Below, piece after piece: positions 10,177-22,000 of a DNA stretch of 64,000 nt (positions are counted from its first letter, which is position 1; every line of letters begins with the position of its first letter). A program made the position numbers. Origin of the DNA: Octopus vulgaris (lineage: Eukaryota); contig OX597833.1 of assembly GCA_951406725.2 (NCBI GenBank), positions 58,776,001 to 58,840,000 on the forward strand, written 5' to 3'.

Positions 10177-13100
10177 GTGCAAACACATATATATATATAT
10201 ATATACATGTGCAAACATATATATATATATATACATGTATGTATGAATATGTAGCCCTACCCCGCCACACTTAACTGGATCTCTTGATCATATAACCTTT
10301 GGCATTTATTTAATTTTATCCATCTATTCCTTTACCCACCTTCCAGCAGCAGCATCATCATCACCACCACCACCACCACCACCGCTGCCACCACCACCAC
10401 CACCACCACCACCAATAGCTAAACATAAGACAAATCCGTAATGAAAGACAAATTTTGTTCAGTCGTACAAATTTATTGATTAATAAAGAGAAGATGAAAA
10501 TTATTGTTATTATTACTGTGAAAATGAAAAGTGGTGCGAGGGGGGGGGGGGAAGGGAATTCGTTGAGCTTATGGGAACATTAAGAAAAATACCTTGTGGT
10601 GTTTGTTCTGGCTTTTTTTGTATGTTCCTAGTTCAAATTCTGCTGTGGTCAAGTACTCATTTTTTTACCCTTTCAGGGTCGATAATCAAGTACCATTCAA
10701 GTACTGGATCGATTCAAGTCGGCAGTTGCTCCCTCCTGTCGTTATATAAGAACGAAAGGAAATGGAGTGTGTATAGGTGTAGATTTGAAGAACTTTTGCT
10801 CCCTTATCTGGGGTAGCTATCAGGATGTCAGCCTCTAACTTGTTCTCCATTCCAGGAGTCTAGAATGTGGAACGTAATGAACCATTTGACCCTTTACTCA
10901 GAGATTAAGTTATTTAATTTACATGTGAATTATTTACTTTTACCTAATTTGTGTGTGTGTGCATTCAGTGATGGATCAGTTCTATAGCTTTGTAGCTCTT
11001 AGTGAATTCTCTATGAGATTTGACACACTGATCACTAAAGATTGTGATCAGTGGTGTAGGAGTGACTGTGTGGTAAGTAGCTTGCTTACCAACCACATGG
11101 TTCCAAGTTCAGTCCCACTGCGTGACACCTTGGGCAAGTGTGTTCTACTATAGCCTTGGGCCGACCAAAGTCTTGTGAGTGGATTTGGTAGATGGAAACT
11201 GAAAGAAGCCTGTCGTATATATGTATATATATATATATGTTTGTGTGTCTGTGTTAGTCCCCCCAACATTGCTTGACAACCGATGCTGGTGTGTTTACGT
11301 CCCCGTAACTTAGCGGTTTGGCAAAAGAGACCAATAGAATAAGTACTAGGCTTATAAAGCATAAGTCCTGGGGTCGATTTGCTTGACTCAAGGTGGTGCT
11401 CCAGCATGGCCGCAGTCAAATGACTGAAACAAGTAAAAGAGTAAAAGAGTGAAGCCTTATCTTAGACTTATGCTTACAAAATGTTTCTGAAAAGACATAT
11501 AACAAATGACATAGTTATTGAATGTTAAATAAATATTTGTGATTCGAAAATAATTTTACTAATTAATGTTCATGTACTAAATTGTTTCTATGAATATCAT
11601 TTTATGAAATTTATTTACGAAAATTACGAAGATTTACTTGCATAACAAGTGACCTGATCTGAGATTGTGTACTGGAACGGAAACAATTGCCACGTGGAAG
11701 GTGTTTATTTTGTCAGTGACTAGGTTGCGGTCTCAAAGCGACAAAAATATTTTGGCAAATTAAAATTTAAACACCTTCCACGCTGCAATTATTTACAAAA
11801 ATATCTTCATTATTTTGTTAAGAATTGTAGAAACTATTTCTGTTTTCTTGCATAGCTTGGGGTTTTTGTAGTAAATCTTTGCTCTGTAGATTTAGTCCCA
11901 TTTACAATTGGTAAGCAATTTTTGGGGTATGTGGGCCCTCGTTCACCATATGAGCTGATGACTTTGCTGTATTTTTACTGCTTCCACTAGAGTCTCTTAA
12001 CCCTTTAGCATTTAAACCCGCCATATCTAACCCAAATATTTTACCTGTTCAAACCAGTCAGATCCAGCCTCTCACACCTACCATACAATGTCGTTCTATA
12101 AATAATCACATTGTCAAAATCTTGAAGCAATGAGATAATGCATGATTCATCATCATAACCGTTTAACGTCCACCCTCTGTGCTAGCATGTTGTGGGACGG
12201 TTCCACAAGAGCTGGCCAACCCAAAGCCTGCACCAGACTTCTGTGACTGTTCTGGCAGGATTTCTACAGTTGGATGCCCTTAATAACACCAACCACACAG
12301 CAGAGTCGACTTGGTGCTTTTTTCATGGCACAAGCACATGCAAGGTGAGAAGTGCTTTTTATGTGGCACAAGCACAGGTGAGGTCAGTTTTGGCAAGGTT
12401 TTTACACCTGGATGCCCTTCCAAACACCAACCACTTTACAGTGTGGACTGGGTGCTTTTAAGTGGCACCTGCACTGACAGGGTCACCAAGTACTTGCAAG
12501 ACAAGAAAAAAAACACTTTCAAAATAATGTGAATAATAAATAGGAATTCCTCCTCCTCCTCATCGTTTAACGTCCGTTTTCCATGCTAGCATGGGTTGGA
12601 GTTGTATTTGATAAAGTAATCTGAATGCTAAAGGGTTGAGATATATGTGTTAGACTCGAAAACAGTGTTGAAATAAAGATTTTTTAAATATAAACAAAAG
12701 ACTAAAGTTGTCAAATAGATTTCATACCTATTTTTTAAACTACTAATAAAAGTATTACTTAAACTTACCGTGAAATGGTCCTTTTTCCATACCGAATTCT
12801 ACTTGGTGAAATTACTAATTACTTCTTAATTGATTAATTTTACCCTTTGTTATTATTTTTTAAACTATTTATTATGACTGCATCAAATATTTGTAATGCC
12901 CTTTTTTTTTTACTGAAATTCTTGTTTGATAAATGACTTATCTCTCTTTTTTCTTTTTCTTTTTCTTTCTTTTTCTCACCTTCTCTCTTCTCTCCGTCGT
13001 TGCCGTTCCGGACTTCCAGCATCGCAGGCCTCTATGTTTCTTTTATTCTGTTGATTGCACGCTTCCTTCGCATGGGAACCATCAACATGCATCCGTCAAT

Positions 13101-19034: not shown

Positions 19035-22000
19035 CCTAGTGTTTAAGCATTTGCCTTTGATCACAGACAAATGATCTATCTTCTGTTCATATGTTTAGAT
19101 TCCATCAGTATTGAGGTGTTTAATTATGTGTGTGTGTGTGTGTGTGTAAAAAAGTGTGATTGGAATCTTTCTTATTTCCTCCCCTTAATTTCCTTAATTC
19201 TTATCCCACGTTTTTCACTCCTCCTTCTATTTGCTAATCTCACCCTTCAATACTATTACTACTACTATTTCTTGCATGAGTTCTTGCCCTATACTTGGGT
19301 GGAAAGCGGGGGTGGAGTGGGTCGGGGTGTCTTTCCCTGCATTTGTTTTTTTTTTCTCTTTATATTTTCTTCAGCTAAAATATTAAGGTACTTCACCCCC
19401 AAGTACCCGTTTACTTTATAACAGTTTTCTCTCTGTCTCACACTTTGGAAATGATTGGAGTAATTCCTGAACAGGTATTTAAAAGAAGAAACAACAAAAA
19501 AAATGAAATGAAATGAAATATTTGCCTTTAAATGTTTGGATGTATGGGGAACATTTTATGGGTTAACAAAATTTAGAAATATTTTCTGTGTTTTTTTTTT
19601 TTTTTGTTTTTTGTTGTCTACATGATTATTGTATTTTTTTTTTTTTTCCTGAAATAATTTTTTTAAATATTTTTTTCTAAATGTCCAAATGGGGAAATGG
19701 CTCACCATGACATTCTACAACAAAACATGTTTGTATCCAGTGGCAGATGTTTGTATTCTAATTCTTGGACAACGCATCAAAATTTCCTTTACAGAGTTTA
19801 ATTATGACAGGCTAACACTCTCTCTTTTCTTCAGTTTAACCCACTAGAAACTACATTCTGTTCCCCGTTTTTTTTTCCCCTGTTAAAATACACAAGTCTT
19901 TAATGACTTATCCAAGAGGAAGTAGAGACTCTAAAACTGGTACTAAGCATTACAAATCTTGTACTGAACATAAAGAAAAGTTTAGCTTCATAAATACATT
20001 TTAGCCTTTTATTAGGTTGTCCCAAAAGTTCGTAAACACTTGCGAAAATTGAATTTTTACTCGCCAGGTACTAACAAAAACAACAAAAATTATTCCTCAA
20101 AATAAAGACCATTATTTTCCAAGACTTTCTACGAACTTTTGGGACAACCTTATATTTATTTGTTCAGCTGTCTGAGAGAGGAGTTGATCTTGGTGTCTAA
20201 CCAGTTCAGAACTCAGATCTCAAAGTTGTTCTCTCTTCTTTCATAGCCGTGTTCCTACCAGCTAAGTGAGGTATGGGACAATTTATTTAGTATCTTACCA
20301 AATTACTGCTACTTTTGATGCAATACAAACTCAAATTCTGCAACCAACTGACTGGCATTTTATTCCCTTGGCCATTGGGACTTCTTTTTTTCTTTTCACA
20401 ATTAATATTCAATATTTTGTTTAATTTTTTTTGTTTAATTTTTTTTTTCATTTTGTTTTTCAATTTTTATATGCTTGAAATTTGTTTTTAGTTTTTCTTA
20501 TGCTTGTGTGTGTTTGTGTGTGTGTTTTCTTTTGCATTCAGGCAATGTTCTTGTCAACCGTAATCTCATCTCTGTTTCAGCATAATTGGCCTTTATGTGT
20601 CAATGGTGTTTGTAATCGGACGCTTTGCTCGTATGTTTGTCAGTGAAGTTTCCTTCCGTATCATGTTTATGGAGCTGCCCCGTGTTGACAACATCTTAAA
20701 ACTCTGCTTGGACATCTACCTTGTTCGCGAATGCTCTGATTTAGGTCTCGAAGAGGAACTGTTTGCTAAGCTTATATTTTTGTACCGCTCACCAGAAACC
20801 ATGATCCGATGGACTAAACCAAAATATGACTGAAATATCCTCCCACAACATCCTGTCACTGCTCTCTCTATACTCAAGAAGTCTCTCTACACTATTTTGT
20901 TTTTACGAGATAAATGTATATACTCTGTATTTATTTCACGAAATATATGTATATAATATATACTTATACATACCCTCAAACTCCATACACTGAAAAAGTT
21001 ATGTAAAAATTCTGAAACTTGTAAGGTTGTATACTTTGATATTAAGAAGATGCAGGTTCAATTTCAGACCCATTCTCTTAACATTTTTTTTTTCTGTTTG
21101 TTTTAAACATACACACTCTCACTGTGTGTGTGTGTACACAAACAGACATACATACATACATGGATTGATTGATTGATTGATAGATAGATAAATAGATGAT
21201 TAATTCAATAATTGTTATATTTAAATTAGCTATTTCTGAACTAAAATATATGTATATAATATATACTTATACATACCCTCAAACTCCATACACTGAAAAA
21301 GTTATGTAAAAATTCTGAAAATTGTAAGGTTGTATACTTTGATATTAAGAAGATGCAGGTTCAATTTCAGACTAATTCTCTTAACATATTTTTTTTCTGT
21401 TTATTAGTGGTTTATATGTTTTAAACATACACACTCTCACTCTGTGTGTGTGTGTGTACACAAACAGACATACATACATACATAGATTGATTGATTGATT
21501 GATAGATAGATGAATAGATGATTAATTCAATAATTGTTATATTTAAATTAGCTATTTCTGAACTAAAAGGGAAGAATAAGAAGTGTGTTTCTACTTTGAT
21601 GTAGCTGTTGTGGTTTAAGTACTGGTCAATGTGGATCAAGTAGAACTATAAGCAAAGGTATTCCAGTTGCGTGACCATCCTCCCTCTGACTTAGTATATC
21701 CAAGATTACCCTAATTAAATATATTAACCCTTTAGTGTTCTGATTATTCTATCAAACATAATGCTAATTGATTCCCATTGATTTGAATTAATTATGCATT
21801 ATCTCATATCTTTAAGATCTTGATGGTGTAATTACTTAATGTAGAATAACATTGTAGGGTAGGTGTGAGAGCCTGGATCTGGTCAGTTTGAACATAAAAC
21901 AAATTAAATATTTTGGCCAGGTATGGCCAGTTTAAATACTAAAGGGTTAAATATATTCTTCCTTTGATTTAGGATGGGAGACTGTGAATTGAGGAAAGAA

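Follow-up and report, generated by a model that had tools for sequence, protein, structure and literature searches.

Two pore-encoding terminal exons, probably used as alternative last exons, in a Piezo gene of Octopus vulgaris

Introduction

Alternative 3' ends that change the pore of an ion channel are known from the Drosophila Shaker K+ channel, where they supply differing pore-lining S6 helices and C-termini and alter inactivation. Here we describe a 64,000-nucleotide stretch of the Octopus vulgaris genome (GenBank assembly GCA_951406725.2, contig OX597833.1, positions 58,776,001 to 58,840,000 of the forward strand; hereafter the window, in whose own numbering positions are given) that holds two copies, termed exon A and exon B, of the terminal exon of a Piezo channel gene. 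The two are probably alternative last exons of one gene and would then be like those of Shaker in forming alternative pore-helix ends, although Shaker is a tetrameric channel of an unrelated family. They are also like the tandem-duplicated, mutually exclusive exons of ion-channel genes, which are homologous, agree in phase and nearly in length, and are present one per transcript; such internal exons, however, are followed in the transcript by a shared downstream exon, whereas the octopus copies each carry a stop codon.

For mammalian Piezo channels, the accessible text of a 2025 review describes cassette exons only, namely Piezo1.1 (exon 30 skipped) and Piezo2 exons 18, 19, 33, 35 and 40; in the same text, such splicing alters permeation, sensitivity or inactivation, and both homomeric and heteromeric Piezo1/Piezo1.1 channels are proposed. 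These cassettes lie in intracellular regions (e.g., the lateral plug) and leave the inner helix and C-terminal domain (CTD) unreplaced, whereas the duplicated terminal exon of octopus would swap the pore lining. A natural, anciently conserved exchange of inner helix and CTD would differ in kind from the known cassette splicing away from the pore helix. The literature searched yielded no description of Piezo genes with alternative terminal or pore exons. A first-pass annotation of the window, made from the sequence alone, knew of no description of a choice between Piezo pore exons, which agrees with the absence of a paper but not with RefSeq, where two isoforms of the oyster Crassostrea gigas, X1 and X2, already represent the same exon pair in the same family. 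The oyster case differs from that of octopus in coming from automatic annotation and from another mollusc class; no paper discussing the X1/X2 pair was found, and no equivalent A/B pair of records was found for octopus.

Results and Discussion

Structure and relation of the two exons

Exon A follows an acceptor AG at 13018-13019, begins with a C at 13020 and runs through 88 codons (13021-13284) to TAG at 13285-13287, and exon B is built in the same way, with AG at 20579-20580, C at 20581, 83 codons (20582-20830) and TGA at 20831-20833. Both lie on the same strand and in equal phase, the single C completing a codon, with a pyrimidine-rich tract before each, and 7,293 bases separate the stop of exon A from the start of exon B (Table 1). 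Because A and B both terminate at a stop codon of their own, where Piezo proteins naturally end, the arrangement is as expected of alternative last exons and unlike that of mutually exclusive internal ones.

The peptides encoded by exons A and B were identical at 49 of 81 positions with no gaps (BLASTP, E = 2e-33), and their DNA was identical at 142 of 243 bases (58%). Third codon positions differed in 54 of 81 codons, and for 32 of the 49 residues that A and B share the codons were not the same; the nonsynonymous divergence (dN) by the NG86 method was 0.37, and the synonymous divergence (dS) was saturated. In the 100-base flanks, ungapped identity between the copies was only 39% before and 29% after the exons, and the similarity is therefore restricted to the coding part. 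The pair is an old duplication of the coding part rather than an assembly duplicate. These coordinates and the BLASTP alignment bear out the first-pass annotation, which had reported two complete same-strand copies of the terminal exon in the same phase, each with its own AG and stop and aligned without indels, as well as many synonymous differences; its count of 49 shared residues was also obtained here, over 81 columns rather than 78.

The window was searched for Piezo exons by tblastn with 17 Piezo queries, including the O. vulgaris records and five full-length proteins (four from molluscs and one from a priapulid). Three matches only were found in the 64 kb, at 323-463, exon A and exon B, and no further Piezo exon was matched by these queries in the 7.3-kb gap between the exons or in the 43 kb downstream. 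A second Piezo gene inside the gap was thereby ruled out, in line with the earlier statement that no Piezo exon lies between the copies. Of the Piezo gene, the 3' end alone falls in the window. The match at 323-463 was considered as the donor shared by both exons and rejected: the copy at 323-451 reads ...FSLIISFERR where the protein derived from mRNA has ...FSLITGYG, it is without the 5' part and the TGYG donor end, and its homology breaks off precisely at the two 158-bp repeats on either side. The window accordingly begins downstream of the true shared donor, a possibility that the first-pass annotation had left open, and contains only a truncated copy devoid of a donor.

The encoded pore module

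Both exons matched the Pfam family Piezo_cap (PF12166) at profile positions 219-297/298, exon A with an E value of 1.4e-34 and exon B with one of 1.5e-40 (121 versus 140 bits), and both aligned to residues 2466-2546 of mouse Piezo1, for which structures have been solved. Besides this Pfam and structure match, each has the other marks of a Piezo C-terminal pore module, namely an M-F/Y constriction followed by x-E-L-P and the pore-extension motif Y-R-S-P-E-T (M-Y-R-E-L-P and YRSPET in exon A, M-F-M-E-L-P and YRSPET in exon B). The exon start corresponds to mouse I2466, inside the inner helix, and the upper part of the helix, up to a conserved GYG, comes from the upstream exon. The initial description of the exon as encoding the inner helix and CTD therefore applies to the lower inner helix and the CTD and not to the upper helix.

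Several residues within this segment have been assigned functions in mouse Piezo1. In the accessible parts of the corresponding papers, L2475/V2476 and K2479 are tied to inactivation; M2493/F2494 and P2536/E2537 are named as constrictions, with pore radii reported at 2493, 2536 and 2537; and E2495/E2496 are tied to Ca2+ selectivity, conductance and block. The A and B modules differ at residues targeted in this mutagenesis, at 2475/2476 (inactivation), 2493/2494 (constriction) and 2495/2496 (Ca2+ selectivity and conductance). At the 2475/2476 gate, octopus exon A has L-L versus F-V in exon B. At seven positions, sequences of the type of exon A (A-type) are nearly fixed for residues seldom found in other sequences (mouse numbering: V2474I, V2481L, F2484S, F2485T, S2486T, E2495R and T2516M), and octopus exon A has five of these seven consensus states. 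In A-type ends, Arg replaces the acidic residue of the vestibule that corresponds to mouse E2495, and S-T-T replaces F-F-S where the inner helix ends on the cytosolic side. Because the A-type positions line or abut the ion path, it is plausible that channels ending in A and in B differ in conductance, ion selectivity or inactivation. One may speculate that each form assembles as homotrimers or that mixed A/B trimers occur.

Both octopus peptides end in a di-lysine pattern, KKDN in exon A (window 13273-13287) and K-P-K-Y-D in exon B (20816-20833). KKXX and KXKXX are retrieval signals to the endoplasmic reticulum recognized by COPI. All 19 natural A-type ends had KKXX (14) or KXKXX (5), the length of the tail being variable, and in all eight ends of the type of exon B (B-type) the position of the stop and the terminal K-x-K-x-x were kept. 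Such an end was also present in six non-mollusc invertebrates, but none of the seven rows from insects, mites, tunicates and vertebrates had one. Exons A and B both appear to be under selection as genuine protein C-termini. Judged by titles and the starts of abstracts, nothing relevant to a di-lysine end of Piezo was found in the literature searched.

Age of the pair

All 21 A-type rows formed one clade (support, 99/97) when 42 terminal-exon peptides were placed in a tree. The clade comprised octopus A, Argonauta, named rows from gastropods (10) and bivalves (6), and 4 further rows. Oyster A grouped with octopus A, and octopus B grouped with B-type records, the mollusc B-type rows being unresolved among those of other phyla. 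In a second tree, of 46 rows, a JGI row stood next to the A group, and A no longer made up one side of a branch. Approximately unbiased (AU) tests on the 46-row tree rejected a single clade of cephalopod A and B (P = 0.0013) and a single clade of the first and second copies of Mya (P = 0.023). The A-type clade and the AU tests together indicate that B is ancestral-like, of a sequence type shared with other phyla, and that A is a derived mollusc type, the duplication being older than the split of cephalopods, gastropods and bivalves. This split took place in the Cambrian, more than 500 million years ago.

Tandem copies were also seen outside the molluscs. A rotifer model (P0125, Didymodactylos carnosus) holds two full copies of the terminal exon in one protein; the copies group with each other in the tree, and the rotifer duplication is thus independent. 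A stick-insect model (P0120, Timema genevievae; P0459 is also listed) has two tandem copies of the half-exon for the inner helix. Duplication of the pore exon may be recurrent in invertebrate Piezo genes.

Records from octopus and other molluscs

Exon A was identical, at 88 of 88 residues, to the mRNA-derived O. vulgaris Piezo records QHX41550.1 and QHX41549.1, in which the exon A part is preceded by ...FSLITGYG; it forms the C-terminus of partial O. vulgaris Piezo records of 1259 and 1267 amino acids. According to the accessible text of a paper on O. vulgaris nociceptor genes, a Piezo GenBank entry is linked to a transcriptome contig, and two PIEZO-family genes are stated for the species.

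Exon B was 84% identical to three cephalopod-like records (P0005-P0007). One of these (P0007, 232 amino acids) is a spliced fragment in which ...ITGYG is joined to the B-type end; its upstream 148 amino acids are 47% identical to the octopus protein, compared with 55% between octopus and Argonauta and 25-37% for other molluscs in the same comparison. The two unspliced records (P0005 and P0006) resemble the window from precisely the exon B acceptor onward. An A-type record (P0400) was 85% identical to exon A, and A and B are therefore similarly conserved.

In other relatives, exons A and B were each searched singly. In C. gigas, RefSeq isoform X1 (XP_011438487.1, 1019 amino acids) has the A-type end and isoform X2 (XP_011438488.1, 1009 amino acids) the B-type end, and their first 932 residues are identical. 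Gene models of Mya arenaria (P0003 and P0004) and Solemya velum (P0215) have an A-type copy followed directly by a B-type copy, in the order of the window. Since the A-type sequences of independent records have a stop codon of their own, this concatenation is most likely a prediction or annotation error caused by alternative exons. Among scallops in one 90% cluster, Argopecten had a B-type end, and Pecten (three isoforms) and Ylistrum had A-type ends.

Use of the two exons

Alternative splicing of one octopus Piezo gene to either A or B as its last exon is, in our view, probable. The core of the first-pass annotation, namely one gene with an ancient duplication retained under selection and spliced to one or the other terminal exon, is supported by the A-type clade, the order of the copies in Mya and Solemya, the oyster isoforms, the match of exon A to mRNA-derived O. 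vulgaris records and the spliced cephalopod-like B-type fragment. Its date also fits, as the trees place the old exon duplication that it proposed before the split of the mollusc classes and reject one confined to cephalopods. Its further proposal, that exon choice takes the place of whole-gene duplication, is weakened by the two PIEZO-family genes stated for O. vulgaris in the accessible text of the nociceptor paper.

Under the proposed mechanism, a penultimate exon upstream of the window, ending in ...ITGYG plus two bases of a codon, would be spliced either to exon A at 13020 or past it to exon B at 20581. Each exon would provide the lower inner helix from I2466 on, including the 2475/2476 gate, K2479, 2493/2494, 2495/2496, 2536/2537 and the remainder of the CTD, and would also bring its own stop codon and 3' untranslated region (UTR). 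The acceptors of A and B would compete, and this competition, together with cleavage and polyadenylation after exon A, would decide which exon is used.

Several observations weigh against use of both exons. The octopus records found show exon A only, and we infer the use of exon B in octopus, as we do the regulatory mechanism and the biophysical difference. No octopus protein with a B end was found among proteins of 147-2000 amino acids, and there was no octopus protein at all among the 120 listed of 1172 matches (975-3103 amino acids) to a region of a Plakobranchus protein. The shared donor is not within the window, and poly(A) hexamers, which this AT-rich DNA contains in abundance, are no proof of polyadenylation sites. 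The spliced fragment P0007 could derive from a paralogue, given the two PIEZO-family genes stated for O. vulgaris, and the C. gigas RefSeq isoforms are model predictions. Among the RefSeq isoforms listed, the A-type end was the only kind in Mytilus (15 of 15 listed, of 47 members), Biomphalaria (12 of the 12 that reach the C-terminus), Physella (8 of 8) and Littorina (3 of 3). B may thus be rare, unannotated or lost in some mollusc lineages.

These observations bear most directly on the explanation that octopus splices only exon A and keeps exon B as a relic without use, which would fit the octopus records and the many mollusc RefSeq isoform sets that list A-type ends only. We regard it as unlikely, since the frame and acceptor of exon B are intact and its stop stands at the ancestral position, it outscores exon A against Pfam, and its similarity to the cephalopod-like records holds from the acceptor on; given the age of the pair, an unused exon of 250 bp would not be expected to remain intact. 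That exon B belongs to another transcription unit, either a second Piezo gene or a short transcript with exons interleaved or upstream, is less likely by a clear step. The statement of two PIEZO-family genes speaks for such a unit, but the lack of tblastn matches in the gap and in the 43 kb downstream, the A-then-B order that recurs in the Mya and Solemya models, and the 932 identical upstream residues of the oyster isoforms all speak for a common gene.

Splicing of A to B in series, which would yield a protein with two inner-helix/CTD units, is very improbable. The three Mya and Solemya models have precisely this form, and exon A contains six in-phase GT dinucleotides (e.g., at 13248), but these are weak donors; independent A-type records stop on their own with a conserved di-lysine tail, the oyster has separate isoforms, and a second membrane-spanning helix after a cytosolic CTD would be expected to invert the topology of the second CTD. 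An assembly artefact, whether an uncollapsed haplotype or a mis-join, is refuted in practice by the depth of the divergence between copies that are 58% identical in DNA with unrelated flanks and that each have their own orthologues in other molluscs.

If both exons are used as last exons of one gene, the same blade/cap scaffold would occur in nature with two different pore modules, both tested by evolution. A wider proposal, for which we see roughly even chances, is that mollusc Piezo carries a two-state pore switch, with an ancestral B and a derived A state, kept since before the cephalopod-gastropod-bivalve split, the states differing in permeation or inactivation and being chosen by selection of the last exon in different types of mechanosensory cell. 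Were this switch to exist, the rotifer and stick-insect tandem copies would suggest that invertebrates have repeatedly gained Piezo diversity by duplicating the pore exon. The pair also carries a warning for annotation, as the Mya, Solemya and rotifer gene models appear to join both copies wrongly in one protein.

Other features of the window

Table 1. Positions of the Piezo exons and associated features in the window
Feature	Position	Strand	Basis or description
Direct repeat copy 1, 158 bp	163..320	+	Self-blastn versus 452-609, 96.2% over 158 bp
Truncated near-copy of penultimate Piezo exon (pseudo-exon), 129 bp	323..451	+	tblastn, O. vulgaris P0123 residues 1124-1170, 89% over 47 amino acids
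Direct repeat copy 2, 158 bp	452..609	+	Self-blastn
Exon A pyrimidine tract and AG acceptor	12960..13019	+	Sequence read
Terminal exon A, coding part with TAG	13020..13287	+	Derived mollusc A-type, lower inner helix and CTD, C-terminus KKDN
Possible 3' UTR of exon A	13288..13881	+	To first AATAAA, 13876-13881 (hexamer scan, weak)
Exon B pyrimidine tract and AG acceptor	20540..20580	+	Sequence read
Terminal exon B, coding part with TGA	20581..20833	+	Ancestral-like B-type, lower inner helix and CTD, C-terminus KPKYD
Possible 3' UTR of exon B	20834..22118	+	ATTAAA at 21714 and 21903, AATAAA at 22113 (hexamer scan, weak)

A Pfam scan of ten long downstream open reading frames identified no neighbouring gene and returned a sub-threshold reverse-transcriptase fragment only. 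This frame, at 40088-40894 on the minus strand, matched RVT_1 with an E value of 0.0025 and 18 bits against a cut-off of 29.6 and is probably a decayed retroelement. The 7.3-kb gap between the exons contains many microsatellites.

The truncated copy of the penultimate exon seems to have arisen within the last intron, by recent local duplication or through capture mediated by an element; the 158-bp direct repeats that border the copy contain the short inverted pair CTGATTGG / CCAATCAG. The last intron also holds a 120-bp tandem repeat in four copies with 92% matches (window 903-1376), with a further partial copy near 1660-1770, and a 258-bp repeat in 1.9 copies (window 3276-3777) that has sequence in common with 1480-1650.

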